Shown here: positions 3,008 to 56,283 of the stretch, piece by piece
Numbering within the stretch: position 1 is the first letter of the stretch
Layout of the letters: every line of letters begins with the position of its first letter
Sequence record: ON568341.1
Direction: 5' to 3' (one strand)
Origin: Escherichia phage UE-S1
DNA: 64,000 bases
Made by a program: the position numbers and the translations under genes
The notes under the pieces: model-generated
Told to the model about the DNA's origin: nothing
What the model saw: only the letters and a program-made list of their open reading frames with translations
Databases searched by the model: none

Positions 3008-3035
3008 TTGACATTGAAAAATAATTATGTATAAT
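3008..3035 (+). promoter_or_regulatory. sigma70-like promoter (TTGACA, 16-nt spacer, TATAAT)
   Basis: TTGACA at 3008-3013 and TATAAT at 3030-3035 read directly; upstream of the ACP-like gene. Confidence 0.45.
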
Positions 3036-3036
3036 T

Positions 3037-3066
3037 AGAGAACTTCATATGGAGTTCTCTTTTTTA
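3037..3066 (+). terminator. intrinsic terminator-like hairpin plus T-run
   Basis: AGAGAACT / AGTTCTCT stem followed by TTTTTT; 90 nt after the stop of 1713..2945. Confidence 0.45.
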
Positions 3067-4879: not shown

Positions 4880-5236
4880 ATGAAATCTAAAATATTTTTA
4901 CCACAATTAATGTGGCATCTGGCAGAGTTAGATGAAGATGATGAATATACTGACTATGGTGCATGGGATGACAGTACTGAAACTTTTAAATCAGATGTAA
5001 AATATAAAATCATCTGCAATGAAAGCAAAGGGCACAGAAGGTGGACTGAAGAATTTGATCTCGTATTTCTTGACATGAGTACAAATAAGTTTTATCATTG
5101 TACTTATGAACGAGGTTTAACAGAAGATAGACCAGTACAACCATTCAGTAATGAAACGGATGGTGTTAAGTGCAATGAAGTTTCTGTAACCAGAGAAGAA
5201 ATTATTACTTATCGAACTTTGTGGAAATATTTGTAA
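4880..5236 (+). CDS. hypothetical protein
   Basis: ORF track; RBS GGAGAAG upstream. Confidence 0.5.
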   Translation: MKSKIFLPQLMWHLAELDEDDEYTDYGAWDDSTETFKSDVKYKIICNESKGHRRWTEEFDLVFLDMSTNKFYHCTYERGLTEDRPVQPFSNETDGVKCNEVSVTREEIITYRTLWKYL

Positions 5237-5237
5237 A

Positions 5238-5636
5238 ATGCTTAAAGAATTAGATTTTTCAAACTTAGAAATTATCAGTGCTGTAAAAAACATTTCCGAT
5301 ATGGGTGATGAGAAAGCAGTTCTTGTTACTATTACTTTTGTAAAAGAAAAAGATAGCTATAGCCATTTAACGGGTATTGAAGAACTAATTCATAAAACCA
5401 ATCTTGAGAATGATGGTAAACTCATCAAGCTTCAGGCTTCCTATACGCAAAAAACGTCAAATTTTATAGACCTAAATAATGTAGTCAAGGTGGTATACAA
5501 TCATCCTGAACACACATATAGGAATACGTCAAGAAATGAAAATGTTGCTAACGATTCGAATATTATCGAAGATGTTGAATTCATAAACACAATTTTTGAT
5601 CGTTGTTCTAAGGATTTAAAAAAAGTATACATGTAA
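5238..5636 (+). CDS. hypothetical protein
   Basis: ORF track. Confidence 0.45.
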   Translation: MLKELDFSNLEIISAVKNISDMGDEKAVLVTITFVKEKDSYSHLTGIEELIHKTNLENDGKLIKLQASYTQKTSNFIDLNNVVKVVYNHPEHTYRNTSRNENVANDSNIIEDVEFINTIFDRCSKDLKKVYM

Positions 5637-5941
5637 TGGGACATTATATGTTCCAATGATATAATGTATATAGAAAATGACAACGGACATTGAAAAATGG
5701 ACACTGAGAACCTACTTCTCTTGAAAATGTAAAGGATAGATGAGCTTTACCGTTGTAGCGAACAGCAGAAGAAACCTGTTAGAGTACTGGCATTCAAACA
5801 AACACGATATAAGACCACGAATCACGGCGACACGGCTGTATAAAGAACTCCGATAAGCATACAGAGAGTTCCTAGATAGATGTATAAGGTTCGCACCTTA
5901 CCAGATTTGCTAAGGGAGTTCAAGAATTGCGGACGCATTTT

Positions 5942-5971
5942 TACAAGAAAGTTGCGTCCAAAATTTGAGAA
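5942..5971 (+). repeat. 30-nt direct repeat, copy 1 (tacaagaaagTTGcgtccaaaatttgagaa)
   Basis: 27 of 30 identical to the copy at 6094..6123; overlaps hairpin GGACGCA/TGCGTCC at 5931-5959. Confidence 0.6.
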
Positions 5972-6093
5972 CAAGTACTACTTTGATCGAATAGAGTTAG
6001 TACTGAGTGCTGTTGATGAAAAGACCAGCGACCGTTGCATATGACTGCGATAGAGAGAAACCGAGCAACCCGCTTTCGCTCTCTAATTTTTGG

Positions 6094-6123
6094 TACAAGA
6101 AAGATCCGTCCAAAATTTGAGAA
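6094..6123 (+). repeat. 30-nt direct repeat, copy 2 (tacaagaaagATCcgtccaaaatttgagaa)
   Basis: 27 of 30 identical to the copy at 5942..5971. Confidence 0.6.
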
Positions 6124-6160
6124 ATTCGCAATTCGATAATATCCGATGCCATCATCGTCA

Positions 6161-6188
6161 AGAGAGACTTAATTGTCTCTTTTTTATT
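6161..6188 (+). terminator. intrinsic terminator-like hairpin plus T-run inside the ORF-free region
   Basis: AGAGAGAC ttaatt GTCTCT followed by TTTTT; could mark the 3' end of a small RNA. Confidence 0.45.
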
Positions 6189-6325
6189 ACCTTCATTCCC
6201 CTGCGGGGGGATGTAATAGTCCTCAACAAATCCCGTCAAGTTTTTAAAGTACATTATCATTTTTAGAAGGAACTAGTTTACGAAGTAAACGCAGTGACTT
6301 CTTGAGTTACGAGAGAACGAAGTGA

Positions 6326-34589: not shown

Positions 34590-34601
34590 GAAAAATAAAT
34601 G

Positions 34602-34629
34602 TTGACAAGATAGAATGATGTGATATAAT
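34602..34629 (+). promoter_or_regulatory. sigma70-like promoter P1 (TTGACA, 16 nt, TGaTATAAT)
   Basis: Read directly; nearly identical element repeats 93 bp downstream. Confidence 0.5.
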
Positions 34630-34694
34630 AAGCATCAGACATAAAGTTTTCAAGCGGCACAAGATGTGAGTTTGAAAAAAATAAAAAAAAGTGA

Positions 34695-34722
34695 TTGACA
34701 AGTTGAAACGATGTGATATAAT
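34695..34722 (+). promoter_or_regulatory. sigma70-like promoter P2 (TTGACA, 16 nt, TGaTATAAT)
   Basis: Near-duplicate of P1, including the ATGTGATATAAT block. Confidence 0.5.
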
Positions 34723-34822
34723 GTTCACATCAAGGCAGCAAAGAGATTTACCTTTTTAAACACACGGATGATTCATGAAGTAATAAAGGAACTGATAAGT
34801 TAAATTATTTTAACACAGTTCC

Positions 34823-34851
34823 TTTACTTTTGCCCACGGATTGGCTATAAT
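34823..34851 (+). promoter_or_regulatory. possible third promoter (TTTACT, 17 nt, TATAAT)
   Basis: Read directly; 42 nt upstream of the MoxR-like ATG. Confidence 0.3.
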
Positions 34852-34892
34852 AGAAACTTAAACGATTTTATCCAACAAAAGGAAATATATAC

Positions 34893-36218: not shown

Positions 36219-36239
36219 TTAACAAAGAGTGGTTGACAA

Positions 36240-36268
36240 GAAGGATACGATATAGTATCCTTCTTTTA
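36240..36268 (+). terminator. hairpin plus T-run (weak terminator or attenuator between the two module genes)
   Basis: GAAGGATAC gatata GTATCCTTC followed by TTTTATC. Confidence 0.45.
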
Positions 36269-36292
36269 TCTTAACTAAACGAGGAAATATAC

Positions 36293-38736: not shown

Positions 38737-39330
38737 ATGAAAAAGAATGAATTAGATGAAGCAATTAAAGGTTTATCTAATGTATGTTTTAGTGGCGGGG
38801 CAGCAGGTGCTGACCGCCTTTTTTCAATCTATGCAAAAAATAATGGATTTGAAGTTATTAATTTTTCATTCAAAGGTCATGTGCATAGTGTAGATGAAAG
38901 CACCATATTAGAAATACCATCCAATATTTTATCTGATATTTCTATATTAAATCAACTAAACATTGCATGTTATTCGTTGCAGCGAAAAGTACCAAAGCCT
39001 GGTTCATATGTTTACAACTTACTTGCAAGGAATAGTTATCAGATACTTAATACAGAAAGAATATATTGTATTGCAAATATTACATCGCCAACTAAGGTAA
39101 GTGGTGGTACTGCATGGGCAGTACAGATGTACATTGATTCAGTTGAAAATCCAGAAATTTATTGTTATGATATGAATTCACGTTCTGTGTTTTACTTCGA
39201 TACAGAACTGAAAGAGTTCAAACAATCATTCGTGGTTCCACCACCACATGGTAACTGGACTGGTATTGGTTCACGCAATGCAACAGAAAAACATATGGAA
39301 CATTTTATTACATTTTTCAAGGAAGAATAA
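38737..39330 (+). CDS. hypothetical protein with Rossmann-like GGAAGAD motif (possible SLOG/DprA-like fold)
   Basis: VCFSGGAAGADRLFSIYA near the N-terminus; assignment is tentative. Confidence 0.4.
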   Translation: MKKNELDEAIKGLSNVCFSGGAAGADRLFSIYAKNNGFEVINFSFKGHVHSVDESTILEIPSNILSDISILNQLNIACYSLQRKVPKPGSYVYNLLARNSYQILNTERIYCIANITSPTKVSGGTAWAVQMYIDSVENPEIYCYDMNSRSVFYFDTELKEFKQSFVVPPPHGNWTGIGSRNATEKHMEHFITFFKEE

Positions 39331-40883
39331 TGAAGCAACTACAAGAACTATATCAAAAAATTCTAGATGAAGGCGTAGAAAGCGTTGACCGTACTGGCGT
39401 TGGCACAATCAAACTTATCGGTCAACAAATGCGTTTCGACCTTAAAGATGGTTTCCCAGCAGTGACGACAAAACGTCTAGCTTGGAAATCAATGACTTCA
39501 GAATTACTATGGTTTATTGAAGGCTCCCATGATGAACGTCGCCTTTGTGAAATTTTACATGGAACTCGTGATACAGAAAAGAAAACTATTTGGACAGATA
39601 ATTGTTTAGATCGTGCAAAAAACGATCCCAATCGATTTAATGGGGAAACGGTCGGTAATATGTATGGCATGAATTGGCGTTATCAACCATCTGAACCACA
39701 TAGCTATCAATATATTGAGAGGAAAACATATATTGATGATTATGTTGAAAATCATATTTGTCCAGAAATTACTGATACATTTAATGGAGTTAAAATTCAC
39801 AAATCTGCCAAATGTGGGGATTATGAAGTTATTGGTAAACATCATAATAATATAGTAATTCGTTTCATTAACACCGGTTCATATAAAATTGTACCAAGAA
39901 CTGCGAAAAATATTAAAGATTTTTTCCAACCATCAATTGAAGGGATTGGATATTTGGGTGGTGTAATTCCTGATACATTAACTGCAAAAAAATTATATCA
40001 AATTTGGAAAGATATGATTATTAGAGTGTATAACCCTAGAAAAAATCATTTATCATATGAAAATATAACTGTATGCAAACGTTGGCATAATTTTATGAAT
40101 TTTTACAATGATGCTTTTTCATTATGGGGATTTCAAGAATTTGTTGACAGTGGGTATTCTCATCAACTTGATAAAGATTATTACGGTTCAAACATTTATT
40201 CACCTGATACTTGTATTTTTATATCAGCATCATTAAATAAAACATTAAATGGTGGTGGACATGGGTTTAAAATTTATCTTTATAAAGGTAATGTATTTTA
40301 TTCTAGAACCGATTTACAAGAATCACGTGGTTTAACAAGAAAGGCCAATTTACCAGATGATGTAACAATATTAGAAGATAATGAAACACACGTAGTAAGA
40401 CCAAAAATATACATTGATCAACTACAGCGTTGTATTGATTTAATAAAGAACGATCCAGATTCAAGACGAATTGTTATTACATCATGGAATTCTAGAGATA
40501 TTGAAAATGCAGCATTAGGTATGTGTCACCCATTAGTACAATGGTTTGTTATTAATGGTAAGTTGTCATGTTCATTTTATATGCGTAGTTCTGATAGCTT
40601 CTTAGGCTTACCATTCAACATAGCATCATATGCACTACTTACCCACATGATAGCACAAATATGTTCTCTAGAGGTTGGAGAATTGATTTATACAGGTGGT
40701 GATTGTCACATTTATAAAAACCACGTTGAACAAGTAAAAGAACAACTACAGCGAAAACCACGTGAATTACCTGAATTGTGGCTTGATCCTACCATTACTA
40801 ATATTGAAGATTTCACAATGGATTCTTTCAAATTAGTAAATTACAACCCAATGCCAACAATTAAAGCACCGATGGCTGTATAA
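39330..40883 (+). CDS. td: thymidylate synthase (ThyA type) with ~240 aa in-frame insertion
   Basis: N-terminal 118 aa and C-terminal 156 aa align along bacterial ThyA (DRTGVGT, ELLWF, DPDSRRI, GLPFNIASYALL, active-site CHP region); the insert sits at the variable loop after the W-R motif. Confidence 0.85.
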   Translation: MKQLQELYQKILDEGVESVDRTGVGTIKLIGQQMRFDLKDGFPAVTTKRLAWKSMTSELLWFIEGSHDERRLCEILHGTRDTEKKTIWTDNCLDRAKNDPNRFNGETVGNMYGMNWRYQPSEPHSYQYIERKTYIDDYVENHICPEITDTFNGVKIHKSAKCGDYEVIGKHHNNIVIRFINTGSYKIVPRTAKNIKDFFQPSIEGIGYLGGVIPDTLTAKKLYQIWKDMIIRVYNPRKNHLSYENITVCKRWHNFMNFYNDAFSLWGFQEFVDSGYSHQLDKDYYGSNIYSPDTCIFISASLNKTLNGGGHGFKIYLYKGNVFYSRTDLQESRGLTRKANLPDDVTILEDNETHVVRPKIYIDQLQRCIDLIKNDPDSRRIVITSWNSRDIENAALGMCHPLVQWFVINGKLSCSFYMRSSDSFLGLPFNIASYALLTHMIAQICSLEVGELIYTGGDCHIYKNHVEQVKEQLQRKPRELPELWLDPTITNIEDFTMDSFKLVNYNPMPTIKAPMAV

Positions 40884-40890
40884 ACGAAAA

Positions 40891-40916
40891 GGGAGAACAT
40901 CAGTTCTCCCTTTTTT
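40891..40916. terminator. bidirectional intrinsic terminator between convergent genes
   Basis: GGGAGAAC atca GTTCTCCC flanked by an A-run upstream and TTTTTT downstream. Confidence 0.6.
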
Positions 40917-40917
40917 A

Positions 40918-43188
40918 TTATCTAATTGTTACCAACGTTCTTCCGTCGAAACGTACATCAGGAGTTGAAGGTATACTGAACACTACGTTAGTGCCGTTAA
41001 ACGTCACGCTATCGACCTCAACACGAGTATAGACACCTGGACTAACCTGTTCCTGTATCTCTGCTGTGACGATGTTTGAGGCTGTTACAGTAAGGGTGTA
41101 GTAGTTACCACTTAATACCCAAGATGAAATGGTAAATGCATCGGTTCTTACTGAACCTGAACCAATTGGAACCCATTGACCTTGAACTTTTTGCATTGAA
41201 GTACGCTCGGTATTGGAGTATGCAATCATACCATCAACACCAACAGAGTTATCAATAGTAGCTAGTACTGGTAATTGAATACCATATCTATTGAAACGTG
41301 TTCTAATAATTCCATTATCATAGATACTTACATCAGCATAATTCCCCATTGAAAGTTTCAAATCTGAATCAACTAATTGCATTGTACTTTGGTTAGTAGG
41401 GCTTTCTAAAGTAATTATTCCATTTGGTAATAAGCTTAAGTTTTTAAATTTATTCGAATTACCATTAAAATTTGTATTAGCGTTGAAAGTACTAGTTCCA
41501 TTAACTACTATTGTGTTTTCTGCGGCATCACCTAATATTGTATTTCGTTGAACAATCAAGTTACCATTAGCAGTAATATTAGTCGCTGTAGTATCACCAT
41601 TTAATTTTGTATTAGCGTTGAAAGTACTAGTAGCATTAACTACCAATGTGTTTGTTGCGTTGTCACCTAATATAGTATCACTTTGAACATTCAAATTACC
41701 ACTAGCAGTAATATTAGTCGCTGTGGTATCGCCATTTAATTTACTTGTACCATCAACTACGATATTACTATTAAATTTCGTATTAGATTTAAAAGTACTA
41801 GTAGCATTAACTACCAATGTGTTTGCTGCGGTGTCACCTAATATTGTATTGCTTTGAACATTCAAATTACCACTAGCAGTAATATTACTAGCTGAAGTAT
41901 CACCAATTAATCTACTTGTACCATCAACTACGATATTACCATGAAAATCGCTTTCACCGTTTTTAAATTCCACTTGTACCGAATACATAGAACTAAATGA
42001 AATTATATTACTACTTGCACTTATACCAACATTAGTATTAGTTGGGTTATCGAAGTGTAATATTGGAGTTAATGCTGGTGTTGTTGTTGTTTGATAGAGC
42101 GTTAATGATGAGTTGTTAATTCGCACACGTTCTGTTCCGGCAGTACTAAATCCAATAGCATCATCAGCAGGATGAAAAATACCAGTATTAGTATCAGACC
42201 ATTTTTCAGGATCATTACCAGGATTACTTGTTGGGTCGAATGGTTTATTATTAAATGCTATCGCTGGTGCGGAAGCACTCCCATATACAACACCAAAACG
42301 ACCAGACCCTATTGTACCATCATCATACATTGAATCGCCTGTTCTACGTAAACATTCAATTACAACATTATCTATGGAAGTTTGAACTGTACCAGCATTA
42401 GTTCTGAATTGACGATTATTTGCAATCATAATAGTGTTATCATATAACACAGAAGCTGCTGAAATACTTGTTCTTGATTGACGAAGGCGTATGTTTTTAT
42501 CTTCAGTAATAATAATCCAATCACCATCAGATAGTGCTGTTTGATTCATTGGCACACCGGAAGCAAACGGCTTAGTTAAATCATCATCAGTTGCTAAATT
42601 AACAAGTCCACTATGCCCAGTACTAGGGATGGAAGTTGAAATAATTCTTGCAAAAGCGTTTGTTACGAGCTTTGCACCAGATATATTTGGATTAGAATCA
42701 ACATAATATAAAATTTCAACCCAATTCCCCTGTCCAGTTGGGTTAGTTGGAGTAAATGTTACTGGGCTGGTTTTTGGTTTATTCGCTTCAAAATGTGCTT
42801 GGGCGGCATCCATAATACCACGCACAACATAATAATCACCACTAAGTGATGATGAGGGTGCAGGTAGTGGGCTTTGGGCTAACGGTGGGTCAATATCATC
42901 TGGAATCGGATTATATGTACCAACAAACTGTAAACCACTAGTTACTGAATCTGGTAATTGAGATGTAAGAAGTTTACCATTTGCATCTAAGTTAGCGAAA
43001 CGCCTGTATGCCATTGAACCATCTTCAAAATCCAGAACACCCTCGAACGATTTCCATGCTTTATTGTATCTAATCATCCCTGATCTTATTACATCAGCGG
43101 TTTCTTTTGATGGTGCTTTTGGTAATTCTAAAAAAGATTTACTATCAATAATTACACCACCATCACCTCTAATTCGATTTATACTCAT
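40918..43188 (-). CDS. tail fiber protein with tandem ~40 aa repeats
   Basis: 756 aa, Asn/Thr/Ser/Gly-rich; repeats NTLVVNATSTF-x-NTK-x-NGDTTATNITASGNLNVQ. Confidence 0.65.
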   Translation of the reverse strand: MSINRIRGDGGVIIDSKSFLELPKAPSKETADVIRSGMIRYNKAWKSFEGVLDFEDGSMAYRRFANLDANGKLLTSQLPDSVTSGLQFVGTYNPIPDDIDPPLAQSPLPAPSSSLSGDYYVVRGIMDAAQAHFEANKPKTSPVTFTPTNPTGQGNWVEILYYVDSNPNISGAKLVTNAFARIISTSIPSTGHSGLVNLATDDDLTKPFASGVPMNQTALSDGDWIIITEDKNIRLRQSRTSISAASVLYDNTIMIANNRQFRTNAGTVQTSIDNVVIECLRRTGDSMYDDGTIGSGRFGVVYGSASAPAIAFNNKPFDPTSNPGNDPEKWSDTNTGIFHPADDAIGFSTAGTERVRINNSSLTLYQTTTTPALTPILHFDNPTNTNVGISASSNIISFSSMYSVQVEFKNGESDFHGNIVVDGTSRLIGDTSASNITASGNLNVQSNTILGDTAANTLVVNATSTFKSNTKFNSNIVVDGTSKLNGDTTATNITASGNLNVQSDTILGDNATNTLVVNATSTFNANTKLNGDTTATNITANGNLIVQRNTILGDAAENTIVVNGTSTFNANTNFNGNSNKFKNLSLLPNGIITLESPTNQSTMQLVDSDLKLSMGNYADVSIYDNGIIRTRFNRYGIQLPVLATIDNSVGVDGMIAYSNTERTSMQKVQGQWVPIGSGSVRTDAFTISSWVLSGNYYTLTVTASNIVTAEIQEQVSPGVYTRVEVDSVTFNGTNVVFSIPSTPDVRFDGRTLVTIR
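41460..41940 (-). repeat. tandem ~120-bp coding repeats inside the tail fiber gene (approximate bounds)
   Basis: Near-identical DNA units visible around 41.46-41.94 kb matching the protein repeats. Confidence 0.5.
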
Positions 43189-43231
43189 TTAAATATTTCC
43201 TCAGAATAGATTATATATGATGTATTTATTT

Positions 43232-43267
43232 TAGATAAAAGAAAAGGCCAAGTATAGACTTGGCCTT
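43232..43267 (-). terminator. intrinsic terminator (minus strand)
   Basis: On the minus strand AGGCCAAGT ctat ACTTGGCCT followed by TTTTCTTTT, downstream of gene 43273..44052. Confidence 0.5.
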
Positions 43268-43272
43268 GAAAA

Positions 43273-44052
43273 TTATTTAGTACGTTCAGGTATATCAATA
43301 CCTTCATATACCCAACTCGCAGCTTGTTGTGCTTTATAAATTGCGTTCGGGTCGGAATCATCAACTGCATCAATTGCTTCACATTGTTTATCACAATCAG
43401 AAAATAGTTTTTCAACCATTGCTAATGATTCAGTATATAGCTGTGTCATTTCTTCTGCTGTTAGTTTTACTATAGCATCATCAAGAATAATAGTAACTTC
43501 ATGAGCACCAGACACAACTTGTGTATAATAATTAAGGAGCATTTGGCGACCAGCAAGATCTGTATTATAACGATGTTCTTTGAATACATAACCAGCATTA
43601 ATTCGATTAGTACGTTCTGATAAAGTTCGTTCTTTCAAATCTTTTTTCACATCAGAAATTGGTACATCGACATAATTGTATGTTTTAAGAACAGTCAATG
43701 CTTTATATTCATCAGTTGCATCTTCTAAAAATTCAACTACTGGTTGTTTTTCATCTTTTAATCGAACATATTCCAATGGTTGATCATTCTTATTTACATT
43801 ACCTACATTTTTATATTCTAACCACCAAAAACCTTCTTCTTTTCTTACCTCATCATTTGGTTCTACTGGAGAACCATCATAACTGGAAATACCATACAAA
43901 GTTCTAATATCGCTATAAAGATAGCGATAGGTCTGTGAATCATCAGGAATTGCACCTGGGCGTTCTTTAAGACCTTTAACACCGATTGGGTTTGAGATGA
44001 TACTACCCAATTCATAGTTTTCCTTTGAATTACCTTTCACATATGTGAACAT
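43273..44052 (-). CDS. hypothetical protein within the fiber cluster (possible fiber assembly or accessory protein)
   Basis: ORF track; position between two fiber genes. Confidence 0.45.
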   Translation of the reverse strand: MFTYVKGNSKENYELGSIISNPIGVKGLKERPGAIPDDSQTYRYLYSDIRTLYGISSYDGSPVEPNDEVRKEEGFWWLEYKNVGNVNKNDQPLEYVRLKDEKQPVVEFLEDATDEYKALTVLKTYNYVDVPISDVKKDLKERTLSERTNRINAGYVFKEHRYNTDLAGRQMLLNYYTQVVSGAHEVTIILDDAIVKLTAEEMTQLYTESLAMVEKLFSDCDKQCEAIDAVDDSDPNAIYKAQQAASWVYEGIDIPERTK

Positions 44053-44117
44053 ATAACTACCTCACTTGTTACGATGGTGTCACCCAAGTAAGGTGACACC
44101 TTTTATTATAATTATTA

Positions 44118-47100
44118 TTAAGCAGTACGTTGAGCAATAAACATATCTGCTACTGAACTTACACCATCATAAATTACTTGATAGATAGTTACAGAGTTTG
44201 CAGTTTTGTTAAGTGTTCCATCAACTACAGCATATGTACCATCGGTAGTAAAGTTTCTATTACCTGTTGTATCTTGTTTAACATAAATGTATACTGAAGA
44301 TGCTTTACCACCACCAATTAGACCAGTGATAGGTGCTAGTGTTGTATCTTGATCAAGTGTGATGAAGTATACGTTGCTAGTTCCGTCAGGTGTCCAAGTT
44401 CCAGAAGGTGCAATAACAGAAGAAGTTACTTGATTTGGTATAACATCATATTTTTTGGTAGTTACTTTTGTTGTAGTGAAGTCTGCGTTGGTTGTAGATA
44501 AATGACCTGTGACAGTTACACCCTTGTCAAATACTGCATTTTCTTTGAAAGAAGATGTTGCATTAACAGTTAATGTATCAGAATCAGAATCACCTAACAC
44601 AACACTACCATTTGCTGTCATTAAACCAGTAACAGTTAGTGTACCGCCGATTGTAGCTTCACCAGTTACAGATGCACTAGCAAGTGTAGCTGCACCAGAT
44701 GTTGTAATGGTGGTAACAGTAGCGTCTTCAAGTGTAATACTTGATGCAGTTAATTTTCCATCAACCGTTAGGCTACCAGTAACATTCGCACCAGCCGACA
44801 TAGTTACTGCTCCACCAAATGAACCAGTGGTCATGACTTCAAGGGTATTTCCTTTAAGTAATTTAGTTGCAGTTATATTTTCACCAGCAGTAATACTAGT
44901 ACCAGCAGCAACACCATTGGTTGCAGTTAATGATTTAACAGCCACGTCAGAGTTTGATTGGTTTAGTGTTGCGTTTAGAATGCCAGTTACAGTGAAGTCA
45001 CCGTTGTTAACTACGTTACCGTTGATTGTTAAGTTATTGTTTTTAGAACCAACATCACCGATGGTTGCTGATTTAGAAATCAATTCTGCACCAGATGTAA
45101 TGTTACCTGCGGCACTAATAGTGTTAGCTGCCTTAACTGCATAAGGTTCAATAGTTTGACCACTAACATCGATATCAGCATTAATACCACCATCAACACG
45201 TAAAGAACCAGCAATGTAAGTATTAGGGAAAATTTGAACAGTTTCTGAGTGTTCACCAACCTGTGTACCAATAATAACAGATGAACCAGTTTTTATTGAA
45301 CCTTCAGATGTTAGTGCTCCCACTGTTGCTGTGCCAGTAACGTTTAGTTTGCCACCAACTTTAGCGTTATTAGTTACTGTTAACGCTATATCATCACCAT
45401 TAAGAGTCATTGATGATGCAGATGCGTTTCCAGTAACATCGAGTGTACCACCAATAGTTGCATTGCCATCAGAATGTAGAGTTTGTGCAACAGAAAGACT
45501 GTTTGCAACCACATCAGTACTGGTCAAATCCAATGCACCCGGTGTTAATGTACCAGTAATGTTAACATTATTACCAAATGTTGCTGCCCCAGTAACATCT
45601 AGGGTAGAGCTAAATGTACCAGAAGTTGCAGAGATTGAACCAGATTCTAGTGAACCAACAGTAGTTTTTCCAGTTACACCTAGTGTACCACCAACTGTTC
45701 CATTTGTTGTAACTTCTAATGTTCCAGTACTTAGATCTTTCGCTGTAACTTTGTCAGATGCGTTAATAGTTGTTGTTGTAACACCACCACTTAGGGTGCT
45801 TGCACCAGTAACACTGAGTGTTTTAGCTGCACTAACGCTGTTTACGTTAAGATCTGCACCAGATAGGTCTAAACCACCTTCAGGAATAAATTTACCCTTA
45901 ACGGTTAGTTGTTGAACAGAACTGTCACCAGTAACATCCAGTGTAGAAGCAGTTAGACCACCATTCAGGCTTGCTTCCCCAGTAACATCTAGGGTAGTTG
46001 TTACAGTCGCACTGTTAAGAGTGGAGTTACCGGAAATATTAGCACTTGGTGCAGTGATTGAACCTTTATCAACTTGTACATCACCAGAAACAACTTTAAT
46101 ACCACCAGCATCAACTGTTAGTTTTTCGGCAGTGTTCAAAGTACTTGAAATTGTTGTTGCACCAGTTAAGGTTGTGGTTCCTGCAACACTCATGTTTCCA
46201 GAGATAGATGGATTACCTGTAATGTTACCAGTAGTTAGAACCAAGTCAGTACCTACAGTAGTGGAACCAGTACTTTCTAATGTTACACCGACAATATTTG
46301 CAGATTTAAGGTCAATGGAGCCATCAACAGTCAAGTTACCATGTACTGTTGCATCACCGAGTGAATTTAATGATTTCACAGAAACATCAGTTTTACTAAG
46401 GTCAATTACACCAGCAGTAAGTGTTCCAGATACTGCCAAATCACCAGTAATTGCTGTATTTTTAGTAATAGATACAGTTTCTGATGCTGACGTAATTGAG
46501 CCAACAGTAAGTGCACCACCAATGGTTGCATTGTTAGTTACAGTTAACGCTGTTTCTTCACCAGATAGTGTTAAAGAAATACCATTCATTTCACCAGTAA
46601 TATTTGCAGATGCCGCAGAAATATCGCCAGCAACTACCGCATTTGTTGCGTTTAGAGTTGTTGTAGTAATTTCAGTACTTTTTACTTTAGGAAGTGCGTT
46701 GATACCATCTTTACTATTAACTGTAATAATACCAGAACTTGTTAGCGATTTAACAGAAACATCTGCACCACTTAAGTTAACTGTTCCAGAAACAACTAGA
46801 TCGCCACCAATATTAGCACCTTCTGTTGTAGTGATTGATTTTGCATTAACTTCAGTTTGGCTCAAATCAATTGTACCAGGTGATACAGTTCCAGAAACAG
46901 TAAGATTACCAGTAATGGTGGTATCATTAGAAATAGATACACCATCATCATTACTAATTGTTGGGGTTTCAATAGTAACAGCTTTAACTTTACCTGAAGA
47001 AGTCATATCAGCAACAGTTGATGTACCAGTAACCTTTAGATTAGTAATATTTGCAGTAGTTGAACCAAGTGTAGTAATAGTACCATCAGTACTTTCTAGT

Positions 47101-49601
47101 TTAGGAAGAACACTAGCAATAGAAGATTCTTTACTAACAATTGCACCAGTGCTGGTTAGTGATTTTGCAGTTACATCAGCATTAGTAAGGTCAACTGTTC
47201 CATTAACGGTTAGATCTCCCCCAACTGTTGCACCAGCAGTAGTAGTAATTGAATTAGCATTAACATCTGCTTTAGTTAGATCAATTGAACCTGGAATGAT
47301 TGCACCAGAGACAGTTAGATCACCAGTTACTTTTGTATTATTAGCAATTGTAATTCCATGTTCATTGGAAATATTAGGAGTTACTAATGAAGGAGTAGTA
47401 GTTACGCCAGATACATTTAATGTTGTACCAACTAATACACTTGATAGATTAGATTGTCCAGTTACGTGAAGTTCATCTGCATTAACAGTTGTGATAGTTG
47501 CAGTTGTACTTTTAAGTACTGGGAGTACGTTTTCGGACACACTATCATTGCTTTTAATAACACCAGAAGTAGTAAGTGATTTAACATTAAGTTCGGCTTC
47601 TGATAAATCAAAAGAACCTTTAACTACGAGGTCACCACCTACTGTTGCACCAGCAGTAGTAGTAATAGATTTTGCATTAAGTTCGGCTGCACTTAAATCT
47701 AGTGAACCAACAGTTAAGCTACCAGTGATATCAACATTTTCAGTAAAGGTAGTCTCCCCACTAATCGTTGGGGCAGTTAAACTCGTCGCAGTGATATTAG
47801 TACCTTTGATTGTTTCACCACTTAATGTACCACTAGCAGTAATAGTCGGTGCGGTAACTTCTGTAGATGCACTAATTGTTGGTGCGGAAACCGAAGTTGT
47901 ACCAGTAATAACACCAGAACTTACTGATCCAGCAGATAATGCACCAGAAAGAGTTGCAGTTGTACCAGTAATATCACCAGTGACAGTTAGTGCTCCACCA
48001 ACAGTAGTATCACCTGTACTTTCCAAAGTTGCACCTTTGACATGTTCGGCTGCCACAACTGATTTTGGTGTTAAATCTTGTCCACTAACGTCAACGGTTA
48101 AACCAGTTACTTTACCAGTGAAATCAACATCATTAAGAATTGCCTTACCACCAACTTGTAGGAATGGTGTACTTGGGTCTTGTGTTTCGTTACCTGTAAT
48201 TGTTAGATAATCTAATTTGTTTAGACCATTACCAGTAATACCATATGTTGATAGTGATGCATTGCCAAATGTTGCAGTTTTAAGAACTTTCAATGTAGCT
48301 GGAGAAACCAACTCAGATTGAACTTCATTCGGTAAAATAACAGTTGGTCGTTGTTCTGGTGTAGTATATGCAAAACCGAGTTTAACCGCTGGGTCTTGAC
48401 TATTTTTACCTAAACTGATAGATTTGAAAGTTGCAGTACCGTTTAAACCAGTAATATTAGAACCTAGTGTAACACCACCCACCAATGAAGTAGTTCCTGA
48501 TACATTCAATGTGGTTGCATTAATATCATCCAACTGGAATTCGCCACCAAGAAGACCAGAAACATTAATGTTATTAAAATTAGCTGTGCCAGTACTTTCA
48601 ATATTTGGGATAGTTGCAGTACCAGTAACTTCAAAATCAGCAACTTTAGTTTTACCTTTTTTTACTTCTAGAAGTGGTGTGTCTGGTGATTGAGTATCGT
48701 TACCAGAAACAGTTAGATAATCTAATTTGTTTAGACCATTACCAGTAATGCCATAGGTTGGCAATGATGCATTACCAAATGTTGCAGATGTCAAAACAGT
48801 CAATTTTGCTGGTGACATTAGTTCAGATTGAATTTCGTTTTGTAGAATTACAGTAGGACGCTTATCTGGGGCACTGTAAGGAAAGCTTAGTCTAAAGGTT
48901 TGTGATTCAGAGTTAGAGCCAATACGGATGTCTTTAAATGTAGCAGTACTATTAATACCTGTTACATTAGCACCAAAAGTTACAGCACCTTTTTGGTTAG
49001 ATGCACCAGTGACGTTCAATGTTTCAGCATTCAAATCAGAAAGATTAAACTCACCGCCTAGTGTACCATTAATGTTTACATCGTTGAATTCAGCAGTACC
49101 AGTGCTTGTAATATCAGTTGTAGACATAGTTGTGATTTCTGCGGAATTAGCAGTAATTTTATCAAAAGCAGCAGTTGTACCAACATCAGCAGTTAAGTTA
49201 CCTTTAAGTGTTGTTACTTCATCAACTTCTAAGCTTTTTACTTTAGTTTCTTGTAGTGCTGTTGACCCAGCAGTTTGTGTAAAATCACCACCAACTGACA
49301 CAACACCGTTAAATGTAGCATTTGCATTGATTGTTGCTGTATCAGAACCACCATCTTCACTACCGATAGTAGTGTTACCTTTAACATCAAGACCACCACT
49401 TAGTGTTGCTTTTCCAGCAACATCTAATGTAGATGTAATATTGGCAGTTTCTGTTTCAATGGCAGTAAAAGATGCATTTGCAAAAGATATACTACCATTT
49501 ACAGTTAGGTTATTCTTGAATACAGCATTCCCTTTGACTAAAAGATCCTTACCAACCGTGCCAGCACCAGTAATATCTAAGTCAGTTTTTATTGAGTACA
49601 T
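44118..49601 (-). CDS. giant repeat-rich tail fiber / adhesin-like protein (1827 aa)
   Basis: Very long Thr/Gly/Ser/Asn/Val-rich ORF with recurring blocks such as GSIDLTKADVNANSITTTAGATVGGDL; RBS GGAGGG before the ATG. Confidence 0.65.
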   Translation of the reverse strand: MYSIKTDLDITGAGTVGKDLLVKGNAVFKNNLTVNGSISFANASFTAIETETANITSTLDVAGKATLSGGLDVKGNTTIGSEDGGSDTATINANATFNGVVSVGGDFTQTAGSTALQETKVKSLEVDEVTTLKGNLTADVGTTAAFDKITANSAEITTMSTTDITSTGTAEFNDVNINGTLGGEFNLSDLNAETLNVTGASNQKGAVTFGANVTGINSTATFKDIRIGSNSESQTFRLSFPYSAPDKRPTVILQNEIQSELMSPAKLTVLTSATFGNASLPTYGITGNGLNKLDYLTVSGNDTQSPDTPLLEVKKGKTKVADFEVTGTATIPNIESTGTANFNNINVSGLLGGEFQLDDINATTLNVSGTTSLVGGVTLGSNITGLNGTATFKSISLGKNSQDPAVKLGFAYTTPEQRPTVILPNEVQSELVSPATLKVLKTATFGNASLSTYGITGNGLNKLDYLTITGNETQDPSTPFLQVGGKAILNDVDFTGKVTGLTVDVSGQDLTPKSVVAAEHVKGATLESTGDTTVGGALTVTGDITGTTATLSGALSAGSVSSGVITGTTSVSAPTISASTEVTAPTITASGTLSGETIKGTNITATSLTAPTISGETTFTENVDITGSLTVGSLDLSAAELNAKSITTTAGATVGGDLVVKGSFDLSEAELNVKSLTTSGVIKSNDSVSENVLPVLKSTTATITTVNADELHVTGQSNLSSVLVGTTLNVSGVTTTPSLVTPNISNEHGITIANNTKVTGDLTVSGAIIPGSIDLTKADVNANSITTTAGATVGGDLTVNGTVDLTNADVTAKSLTSTGAIVSKESSIASVLPKLESTDGTITTLGSTTANITNLKVTGTSTVADMTSSGKVKAVTIETPTISNDDGVSISNDTTITGNLTVSGTVSPGTIDLSQTEVNAKSITTTEGANIGGDLVVSGTVNLSGADVSVKSLTSSGIITVNSKDGINALPKVKSTEITTTTLNATNAVVAGDISAASANITGEMNGISLTLSGEETALTVTNNATIGGALTVGSITSASETVSITKNTAITGDLAVSGTLTAGVIDLSKTDVSVKSLNSLGDATVHGNLTVDGSIDLKSANIVGVTLESTGSTTVGTDLVLTTGNITGNPSISGNMSVAGTTTLTGATTISSTLNTAEKLTVDAGGIKVVSGDVQVDKGSITAPSANISGNSTLNSATVTTTLDVTGEASLNGGLTASTLDVTGDSSVQQLTVKGKFIPEGGLDLSGADLNVNSVSAAKTLSVTGASTLSGGVTTTTINASDKVTAKDLSTGTLEVTTNGTVGGTLGVTGKTTVGSLESGSISATSGTFSSTLDVTGAATFGNNVNITGTLTPGALDLTSTDVVANSLSVAQTLHSDGNATIGGTLDVTGNASASSMTLNGDDIALTVTNNAKVGGKLNVTGTATVGALTSEGSIKTGSSVIIGTQVGEHSETVQIFPNTYIAGSLRVDGGINADIDVSGQTIEPYAVKAANTISAAGNITSGAELISKSATIGDVGSKNNNLTINGNVVNNGDFTVTGILNATLNQSNSDVAVKSLTATNGVAAGTSITAGENITATKLLKGNTLEVMTTGSFGGAVTMSAGANVTGSLTVDGKLTASSITLEDATVTTITTSGAATLASASVTGEATIGGTLTVTGLMTANGSVVLGDSDSDTLTVNATSSFKENAVFDKGVTVTGHLSTTNADFTTTKVTTKKYDVIPNQVTSSVIAPSGTWTPDGTSNVYFITLDQDTTLAPITGLIGGGKASSVYIYVKQDTTGNRNFTTDGTYAVVDGTLNKTANSVTIYQVIYDGVSSVADMFIAQRTA

Positions 49602-49673
49602 TTATACCCTCCATGATAACCTTGTTAATATGTATATATTTAGTTTTATTCTTCTGTTAACTAATAATTTGTC

Positions 49674-49709
49674 AAAATAAAAAACCAGACTTATTGATAA
49701 CAAGTCTGG
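49674..49709 (-). terminator. intrinsic terminator (minus strand)
   Basis: On the minus strand CCAGACTT guuaucaau AAGTCTGG followed by TTTTTTATTTT, downstream of gene 49718..50617. Confidence 0.55.
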
Positions 49710-56254: not shown

Positions 56255-56261
56255 AAAAAAA

Positions 56262-56283
56262 GGAGCCAAGTGGCTCCTTTTTT
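56262..56283. terminator. bidirectional intrinsic terminator
   Basis: A-run, GGAGCC aag tGGCTCC, T-run between convergent genes. Confidence 0.6.

Follow-up and report, generated by a model that had tools for sequence, protein, structure and literature searches.

A terminator-shaped hairpin between two minus-strand genes

The window analyzed in this study comprises 64,000 nucleotides of Escherichia phage UE-S1 (record ON568341.1) and contains, between two minus-strand genes, a stable hairpin that reads as an intrinsic terminator on the plus strand. The question raised by this locus is which of the two possible transcripts the hairpin serves. The region is 85-87% identical to 121Q, PBECO4 and ph0011, and the phage is an Asteriusvirus-like (121Q/PBECO4) E. 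coli jumbo phage. The hairpin occupies most of the 65-nt gap between the two genes, and the features at this junction, listed in the direction of minus-strand transcription, are as follows.

44118 to 49601, minus strand: gene for a 1827-aa long tail fiber protein (proximal subunit-like; PHROG 4549, tail fiber), with its stop codon at 44118-44120
44101 to 44117, minus strand: A/U-rich spacer from the fiber stop codon to the hairpin, sense UAAUAAUUAUAAUAAAA, with more in-frame UAA codons and an AAUUA motif
44076 to 44100, minus strand: stem-loop, sense RNA GGUGUCACCU-UACUU-GGGUGACACC, 10 bp including one U·G pair, 5-nt loop, -17.1 kcal/mol
44053 to 44075, minus strand: conserved 23-nt leader (AUCGUAACAAGUGAGGUAGUUAU) from the hairpin to the start codon, with 2 variable positions only among the closest relatives (group 1, defined below)
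43273 to 44052, minus strand: gene for a 259-aa virion protein (DUF4376, PHROG 17968), without an ATAAATA late promoter of its own

Homologs of the 1827-aa reading frame carry the annotation 'long tail fiber proximal subunit', and homologs of the 259-aa DUF4376 protein are labelled 'virion structural protein' and sometimes tail fiber. The first-pass annotation had placed the element between two fiber genes, both on the minus strand. The shared orientation was borne out by the coordinates of the two genes (44118..49601 and 43273..44052), and the upstream 1827-aa product is clearly a fiber protein; the downstream 259-aa product is more accurately described as a fiber-associated virion protein. 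A Shine-Dalgarno (SD) sequence, GAGGU at 44059-44063, lies 6 nt ahead of the AUG (44050-44052) of the 259-aa gene, and 12 nt separate it from the end of the hairpin.

Read on the plus strand, the element is a perfect 9-bp GC-rich inverted repeat at 44076-44100, GGTGTCACC caagtaa GGTGACACC, followed by TTTTATTAT at 44101-44109. The corresponding plus-strand RNA folds through arms at 44076-44084 and 44092-44100 (9 bp, 6 GC pairs) around a 7-nt loop at -14.8 kcal/mol, and each arm is a near-palindrome by itself. The plus-strand 'T-run' is the complement of the A/U-rich sense spacer. In the minus-strand reading, AAAA stands before the hairpin and AUCGUAAC after it, and a U-run is absent. The earlier description of a hairpin plus T-run shaped like a terminator on the plus strand (44076-44109), with an A-run before and no U-run after it on the minus strand, consequently agrees with the sequence, apart from a start coordinate (44075) that was off by one base.

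A search for perfect hairpins with a stem of at least 9 bp and at least 5 GC pairs recovered 10 in the window as compared to 0.15 +/- 0.36 in 40 dinucleotide shuffles, and the fold z-scores of the hairpin are -2.9 (plus strand) and -3.3 (minus strand). The hairpin at 44076-44100 exceeds chance by far. It is unannotated in all 31 records that carry it. The covariance models of Rfam 15 gave no gathering-score match in the window, with chance-level matches only (E 0.67-8.6) around the site, and no tRNA was found.

Orientation of the hairpin relative to other intergenic hairpins

Intergenic perfect hairpins with a stem of at least 8 bp and at least 4 GC pairs were collected from the window (n=15). 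Eleven of the 15 lie between co-directional genes and carry a T-tail on the sense side, and three lie between convergent genes and carry tails on both sides. The hairpin at 44076-44100 is the only one with a T-tail on the antisense side alone (tail score 4.07 versus 0.72 on the sense side). A classical terminator discriminant scored the plus orientation at +14.3, the fourth best of 17 in the window, and the minus orientation at -37.7. The census was repeated on the whole 348.5-kb genome of 121Q, which contains 72 perfect hairpins, 46 of them intergenic; a tail is present on the sense side alone in 17 of these, on both sides in 16, on neither side in 11 and on the antisense side alone in two. 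One of these two antisense-only cases, the hairpin at 116409, was rejected as a second example because it is explained as the delayed terminator of a convergent minus-strand block, and the remaining one is the orthologue of the 44076-44100 element. These results confirmed that the orientation anomaly is real and that the hairpin is a singleton, not part of a genome-wide class of antisense terminators.

Predicted transcription units of the fiber block

The 121Q genome is transcribed almost wholly on the plus strand, and the fiber block forms a minus-strand island within it. The signals that divide this block into transcription units in the window are listed below in the direction of minus-strand transcription.

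49685 to 49709, minus strand: canonical sense terminator, a hairpin with UUUUUUAUUUU, at the end of the unit that precedes the fiber gene
49637 to 49643, minus strand: CTAAATA, which differs from the late promoter motif at one position, starts 42 nt upstream of the fiber start codon and is conserved in 121Q
43244 to 43267, minus strand: canonical sense terminator, a hairpin with UUCUUUUAUC, at the end of the fiber/259-aa unit, conserved with its tail in all lineages including A4 and JNE01
43223 to 43229, minus strand: late promoter motif ATAAATA, located 41 nt ahead of the 756-aa gene that comes next
40886 to 40915, both strands: bidirectional terminator of 12-13 bp at the convergent boundary between the plus-strand thymidylate synthase gene and the minus-strand fiber block

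The block thus starts with a late promoter (53959), three genes and the terminator at 49709-49685, continues with CTAAATA, the fiber gene, the hairpin, the 259-aa gene and the terminator at 43267-43244, and ends with ATAAATA (43229-43223), the 756-aa gene and the bidirectional terminator at 40915-40886. ATAAATA has been predicted as the late promoter motif in CBB and GAP32, related phages that also code for a gp55-like sigma factor (PMC5259590). Twelve copies are present in the window, eight of which lie 19-50 nt upstream of a start codon on the same strand (seven at 37-50 nt). The motif is approximately 4-fold depleted in the 121Q genome (35 + 20 copies versus 133 + 97 expected), as expected of a functional signal. 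No copy precedes the 259-aa gene, though in the window the motif is found ahead of the genes on either side of the fiber/259-aa unit and, as the CTAAATA variant, ahead of the fiber gene itself. CTAAATA at 49637-49643 is presumed to be the promoter of the fiber/259-aa unit.

Conservation of the stem, the loop and the A/T run

The 20 sequences in which the junction was read came from the window, 18 public phage records and a single metagenome contig, and the spacer of the window recurs unchanged in two Logan contigs. Seventeen of the 20 have the common stem GGTGTCA...TGACACC and are referred to here as group 1. Four hairpin lineages make up this group: the window, ph0011, the 121Q/PBECO4 type and the vB_Ec-M-J type, the latter including Turkey3 and BF17. 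Of the four-fold degenerate sites of the adjacent gene, 34-58% differ between the lineages, yet no difference among the 17 sequences falls on any of the 14 basal stem bases, and the loop is almost wholly different from lineage to lineage. An invariant stem base set against this level of neutral divergence, together with a scrambled loop, indicates that the stem is under ongoing purifying selection. Further variants were sought in IMG/VR and in metagenomes through protein and DNA-pattern scans, which returned 121Q-type copies only.

Substitutions in the group-1 stem are limited to two independent C-to-U changes in the sense 5' arm. Both give U·G pairs in the sense RNA but C·A mismatches in the plus-strand RNA. 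The sense hairpins are uninterrupted in all 5 variants (9-11 bp, -14.0 to -17.1 kcal/mol), while the plus-strand hairpins of the 121Q-type and vB_Ec-M-J-type lineages are weakened yet foldable (-12.4 and -10.8 kcal/mol, respectively). Comparison of the two strands therefore favors a hairpin that matters in the minus-strand transcript, with the asymmetry counted over two substitution events only. No compensatory double change was found in the stem among the group-1 sequences, and a sequence-specific instead of a structural constraint on the stem is possible on this alignment. The adjacent sense terminator, which served as a positive control, displays the same sense U·G signature and one compensatory pair.

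The A/T run beside the stem behaves differently from the tail of this genuine terminator. The terminator tail UUUUCUUUU and the promoter that follows it do not vary, not even in phages as distant as A4 and JNE01, whereas close relatives differ in the A/T run beside the hairpin, which ranges from 3 to 9 bases and is never lost. Its length variation arises by slippage. This comparison suggests that the plus-strand 'T-run' is less constrained than a real terminator tail. The run is longest (T6-T9) where the plus-strand stem is weakest, an arrangement that selection for plus-strand termination would fit too. A sense U-tract is absent from all group-1 relatives.

Outside group 1 the same junction carries other hairpins. 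In JNE01 and Turkey5 the hairpin is an unrelated one, CCAGTACTG...CAGTACTGG, with a sense-side T5 and a loop that is inverted between these two phages, and phage A4 has a third hairpin type with a weak sense tail. In Erwinia phage Kaldavass, AAAA-hairpin-TTTTTT and then an ATAAATA promoter precede the homologous gene. Xanthomonas phage XaC1 has a 14-nt gap and no hairpin. Every Asteriusvirus lineage examined has a hairpin at the junction, with three unrelated stem sequences among them, which indicates that the position of the hairpin is conserved within Asteriusvirus while its sequence turns over. Judging from these lineages, the ancestral state of the junction was probably a sense or bidirectional terminator; in group 1, where the spacer is shorter, the sense T-tract seems to have disappeared together with any promoter that followed it. 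The sense T-run of the other lineages may also mean that the ancestral role of the hairpin was termination rather than stabilization.

A candidate intercistronic stem-loop of the fiber mRNA

Our favored reading, at a little less than even confidence, is that the hairpin is a non-terminating intercistronic stem-loop of a bicistronic late fiber mRNA, where it would act as a barrier to decay or processing. In this proposal a late minus-strand mRNA would run from CTAAATA through the 1827-aa fiber gene, the hairpin and the 259-aa DUF4376 gene to the terminator at 43267-43244. Because the sense RNA has no U-tract after the stem, sense transcription by host RNA polymerase is expected to continue past the hairpin. 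A sense-strand terminator is correspondingly poor at this position, with AUCGUAACAAG in place of a U-tract, a tail score of 0.72 and the discriminant of -37.7 given above. The 259-aa gene has no late promoter motif and therefore probably depends on read-through from the fiber gene. From the sequences examined, we infer the co-transcription of the two genes, the effect on RNA decay and any cleavage by RNase E.

The 9-11 bp stem would be kept in the message, where it would halt 3'-to-5' exonucleases entering from the downstream cistron and so shield the 5.5-kb fiber cistron. An AU-rich tract with an AAUUA motif is the type of site that RNase E prefers, and an endonucleolytic cut in the A/U-rich spacer could leave a protective 5' stem-loop ahead of the 259-aa leader and SD. 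The terminator shape on the plus strand would then be largely a by-product, in that a stop-codon-rich A/U spacer chances to adjoin the 5' side of the stem. Such an element would nevertheless be directional, with sense transcription passing and antisense transcription halted.

The properties of the locus that bear on this proposal are a sense RNA without a U-tract, the lack of a late promoter between the cistrons, canonical terminators that bracket the pair, and a stable, conserved sense stem (9-11 bp in 5 variants) whose two substitutions are G·U-compatible. The first-pass annotation had offered, as one of two options, that the hairpin is an mRNA processing or stability element. That option appears to fit the comparative data better than its alternative, given the conserved stem, the sense-only G·U pairs and the lack of a promoter or a U-tract. 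No transcriptome or RNA data for Asteriusvirus were found in the literature searched.

Intercistronic stem-loops that stabilize mRNA include the malE-malF REP hairpin and the hairpins of the Rhodobacter puf operon. The hairpin described here resembles them in being stable, GC-rich, free of a U-tract and located between cistrons near a stop codon, and an element of that type would be expected to block 3'-to-5' exonucleases and to let the two cistrons differ in stability. It differs from them in being a single-copy element of a phage late operon, with a T-run on the opposite strand. A second likeness, which counts in favor of the proposal, is found within 121Q, in the early 5' UTR cassettes at 145-153 kb, which consist of TTGACA-17-TATAAT, a 12-nt spacer, GGGGAGAA-tag-TTCTCCCC, a leader and an SD. 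In both settings a short A/C-rich leader separates a non-terminator hairpin from an SD and an AUG. The early hairpins follow consensus promoters at primary 5' ends, whereas any 5' end at the fiber junction would need processing.

Possible termination of plus-strand transcription

The other option of the first-pass annotation was that the hairpin stops antisense transcription into the fiber operon. A selected plus-strand intrinsic terminator would act as a one-way valve or insulator that spares the fiber gene from antisense transcripts and lets sense transcripts pass. Polymerases that escape the boundary terminator could make such antisense transcripts, as could spurious or early initiation within the 756-aa and 259-aa genes, which are AT-rich; stopping them would be comparable to limiting T4 'anti-late' RNA. 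We consider this reading possible but doubtful. Its strength is the plus-strand signature, which has all canonical features (9 bp in the stem, 6 of them GC pairs, a loop of 7 nt and TTTTATTAT directly 3' of the stem, with tail score 4.07 and discriminant +14.3) and is as strong as the phage's own terminators. A plus-strand polymerase that reached the hairpin would almost certainly be terminated, judging by these features. The T-run adjoins the stem in every group-1 variant, including the T6-T9 runs at the weakest plus-strand stems. Furthermore, with 121Q transcribed mostly on the plus strand around its minus-strand fiber island, plus-strand polymerases are likely intruders, and the 5.5-kb repetitive tail fiber gene carries long antisense ORFs. 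Antisense-oriented terminators have been mapped experimentally and make up 9% of the termination sites in six Pseudomonas phages (PMC10914365).

The terminator shape in this claim is supported; for the plus-strand transcription that would have to arrive there, neither a gene nor a conserved promoter was predicted. The 3.1 kb upstream of the hairpin on the plus strand contain no gene and no promoter scoring above 9/12, promoter-like matches are fewer than in shuffled sequence (39 versus 50.6), and the block contains no ATAAATA on the plus strand. The strong bidirectional terminator at 40886-40915 already stands at the boundary of the block, where it is the first barrier to plus-strand read-through. 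An antisense-side device of this kind is absent from the other minus-strand islands and from the other junctions represented by the 46 intergenic hairpins of 121Q. In addition, two group-1 lineages carry C·A mismatches in the plus-strand RNA, and the T-run drifts in length from 3 to 9 as compared to the invariant tail of the adjacent genuine terminator. Unlike the antisense terminators of the Pseudomonas phages, the hairpin has no predicted transcription unit on the strand that it would terminate, and its stem is better kept in the RNA of the opposite strand. The stem-loop role and the one-way antisense terminator role are not mutually exclusive. That the element was selected as a 'transcriptional diode' shielding the fiber gene, or as the end of a short antisense RNA over the ribosome-binding site (RBS) of the DUF4376 gene, is in our judgment unlikely.

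Translational, relic and other explanations

A translational role was considered. The hairpin might insulate or present the RBS of the 259-aa gene, for instance by preventing structure in the leader, or it might clamp a helix between the fiber end and the SD-AUG region that couples translation of the two cistrons. T4 gene 38 is a tail fiber assembly gene that follows fiber gene 37. Hairpins have been described in the initiation regions of T4 genes 38 and 25 (PMC3014915). The resemblance to the present case is that a hairpin stands at a junction, ahead of a gene whose predecessor is a structural gene. In the window a conserved SD lies 12 nt past the hairpin, the 23-nt leader is almost invariant, and RNAalifold predicted a 12-bp outer helix that pairs the last fiber codons with the SD and AUG. 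This outer helix (-8.8 kcal/mol) is, however, equalled or bettered by 11.5% of random 18-nt windows of fiber mRNA paired against the same RBS; it is missing from most single-sequence minimum-energy folds and is broken by synonymous changes in two of seven sequences. Moreover, the hairpin of T4 genes 38 and 25 separates the SD from the AUG and brings the two closer together (PMC3014915), whereas here both the SD and the AUG are 3' of the hairpin, and the SD is at normal spacing, so that a split-SD arrangement is excluded. On balance a translational role seems improbable.

The hairpin could also be a relic, the remaining half of a former bidirectional or sense terminator that lost its sense T-tract and downstream promoter as the spacer went from approximately 85 to 65 nt, and that now has little function. 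The sense T-run in other lineages, namely the T5 of JNE01 and Turkey5 and the AAAA-hairpin-TTTTTT with ATAAATA of Kaldavass, in longer spacers, would agree with such a history, as would the evolutionary plasticity of a junction with three unrelated hairpins, one of them with a loop inverted between two phages. Bidirectional terminators (40886-40915, 56256-56283 and 61996-62026 in the window, and that of Kaldavass) likewise have, when read in the sense direction, an A-run ahead of a GC-rich hairpin; the hairpin at the fiber junction differs from them in missing the sense T-tract and in being flanked by co-directional, not convergent, genes. Against a relic with little function stand the 14 invariant stem bases at 34-58% neutral divergence, which amount to ongoing purifying selection. 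The group-1 stem is also unrelated in sequence to the other hairpins, hence direct descent is not demonstrable. We regard this explanation as quite improbable.

The cis-antisense RNAs P22 sar and lambda oop have their own terminators between co-directional phage genes, and a small RNA of this type would have to start in the 5' end of the 259-aa gene, cross its RBS and end at the hairpin. As with sar and oop, an opposite-strand terminator lies beside the RBS of the downstream gene, in this case 24-48 nt beyond the 259-aa start codon, and the candidate promoter TTAACA-17-GATACT at 43976-44004 would yield an RNA of approximately 95 nt complementary to the SD and AUG. Unlike sar and oop, no credible or conserved antisense promoter was found at this site. 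The candidate matches at 9/12 only, which is the background level, and its -10 is AATGTT or GATGTT in relatives; conservation of its -35 is accounted for by coding sequence, and the real sigma-70 promoters of the phage are near-consensus. Rfam gave no match. A small antisense RNA is accordingly a highly improbable explanation.

Very little credence is given to a DNA-level site, either GGTGNCACC as a site of protein binding or recombination or a TATAAT promoter in the spacer whose transcript would carry a 5'-terminal stem-loop. The arms are near-palindromic, the stem shows sequence conservation but no covariation, a distance of 4-10 nt separates AATTATAATT from the stem downstream of it, and three Salmonella phage assemblies break exactly at the hairpin spacer. 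However, GGTGNCACC is unenriched in 121Q (2 sites versus approximately 1.6 expected), the hairpin element is single-copy per genome (31 phage records), and no recombination breakpoint was found at the hairpin, which is spanned by a single 8.3-kb block of 83% identity to 121Q. The TATAAT in the spacer has no usable -35, TG extension or ATAAATA, is TAAAAT in Turkey3 and BF17, and lies 4-10 nt from the stem.

Four further candidates were rejected. A repeated (REP-like) element is contradicted by the hairpin and its arms being unrepeated in the window, in 121Q and in 50,697 phage records beyond the orthologous site. A MotA-box-like TGCTTAA at the fiber stop, judged by eye, has the wrong spacing to any -10, and its bases are the last codons of the gene. 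The 9-11 bp stem is shorter than a typical RNase III substrate, and a stimulator of frameshifting or read-through does not agree with five in-frame UAA codons ahead of the stem and with other frames that close within 18 codons.

Implications for Asteriusvirus fiber operons

The hairpin is an ordinary kind of element in a previously unannotated instance. Its shape calls for caution, as terminator predictors will assign it to the wrong strand, and the comparison of G·U pairs with C·A mismatches on the two strands is an inexpensive means of deciding which transcript a hairpin serves. If the hairpin does act as a selected terminator of antisense transcription, it would be a natural unidirectional insulator within a late operon and a hint that antisense transcription into long fiber genes is costly, which would be of modest interest for phage transcription and for synthetic-biology parts. 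If it is instead the intercistronic stem-loop that we tentatively favor, it would add one more hairpin that tunes the relative stability or expression of a fiber gene and its partner, an unsurprising outcome that would help the annotation of operons in 121Q/PBECO4-type jumbo phages.

Putative promoters and leaders

The motif ATAAATA behaves as the late promoter motif, with copies at these positions:

window 23306, 26377, 30156, 30683 and 53988, plus strand, ATAAATA motif match
window 43229 and 53959, minus strand, ATAAATA motif match

A same-strand start codon lies 19-50 nt downstream of the motif in 8 of 12 copies in the window, and the 121Q genome carries 55 copies against about 230 expected, an approximately 4-fold depletion. 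The same motif has been predicted in phages CBB and GAP32 (PMC5259590).

Near-consensus sigma-70 promoters and composite terminator/promoter units were located as follows:

window 34590-34892 and 12510-12673, near-consensus sigma-70 promoters (TTGACA-17-TATAAT)
window 3015-3060 and 36230-36270, composite terminator/promoter units
121Q 109271, 144918, 148612, 151910 and 153834, composite terminator/promoter units

Two of the near-consensus promoters stand in tandem at window 34600-34740. In both promoter intervals (34590-34892 and 12510-12673) the promoter is followed by 100-150 nt of apparently structured non-coding sequence and then by the next gene; neither interval gave an Rfam match at gathering score, and the non-coding stretches are candidate leaders or small RNAs. 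Some composite units place the -35 element TTGAC within the terminator hairpin, in the order AAAGGGATTGACTCCGGTCAGTCCCTTT, GC and TATTAT; in others the hairpin and the promoter overlap.

Hairpins and non-coding sequence

A repeated early-gene cassette was found in 121Q (pieces L022 and L023):

121Q 145532, 147653, 147926, 149172 and 152388, early-gene cassette

Each cassette is ordered as TTGACA-17-TATAAT, a 12-nt spacer, the hairpin GGGGAGAA-tag-TTCTCCCC, an A/C-rich leader, a Shine-Dalgarno sequence and AUG. The hairpin lacks a T-run, and these hairpins are probably 5' UTR stabilisers.

The 689-nt gap at window 5637-6325, which holds no ORF of at least 100 aa, is visibly higher in GC than its surroundings and ends in a hairpin plus T-run. 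It contains no tRNA and, with the threshold relaxed to E<=1, nothing from Rfam; a non-coding RNA or a decayed gene is possible.

At the fibre/259-aa junction, the relatives JNE01 (L003, 3453-3481) and Turkey5 (L010) share the stem CCAGTACTG/CAGTACTGG, while their 11-nt loops, ATCATTGTGAC versus GTCACAATGAT, are exact reverse complements. This difference is a hairpin-loop 'flip' inversion. Similar hairpins, CCAGTACT...AGTACTGG, recur at 121Q 116409 and 121957.

Gene-level differences and the fibre region

window 39330-40883, plus strand, thymidylate synthase ORF, 517 aa

The thymidylate synthase measures 517 aa here versus 309 aa in 121Q. At about residues 118-352 it carries an in-frame insertion, roughly 210-235 aa in length, that has no Pfam match and is flanked by approximately 40 unusually diverged residues. 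The insertion could be intein-like or a homing element. Compared with its 121Q homologue (gene 569, 1965 nt), the 756-aa gene (40918-43188) has about 300 nt more. An internal tandem duplication seems to account for the extra length, given that window 41597-41775 and 41770 onward both align to 121Q locus positions 5168-5346.

Position 1 of the Salmonella phage records SD-6_S16 (OR699182), SD-1_S14 (OR699183) and SD-15_S21 (OR699188) is exactly the fibre/259-aa spacer. These assemblies (310-326 kb) are shorter than their relatives and lack the adjacent fibre gene, and their shared start looks like an assembly break rather than a biological end.

ORF calls placed long ORFs of 194-482 aa antisense to the 1827-aa fibre gene:

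window 44509-45144, 45331-45915, 46021-47469, 47491-48210 and 48928-49680, plus strand, antisense ORFs

The fibre gene is repetitive and compositionally periodic, and these reading frames are probably its shadow ORFs. A plus-strand terminator at 44076 would shield the sequence that holds them.
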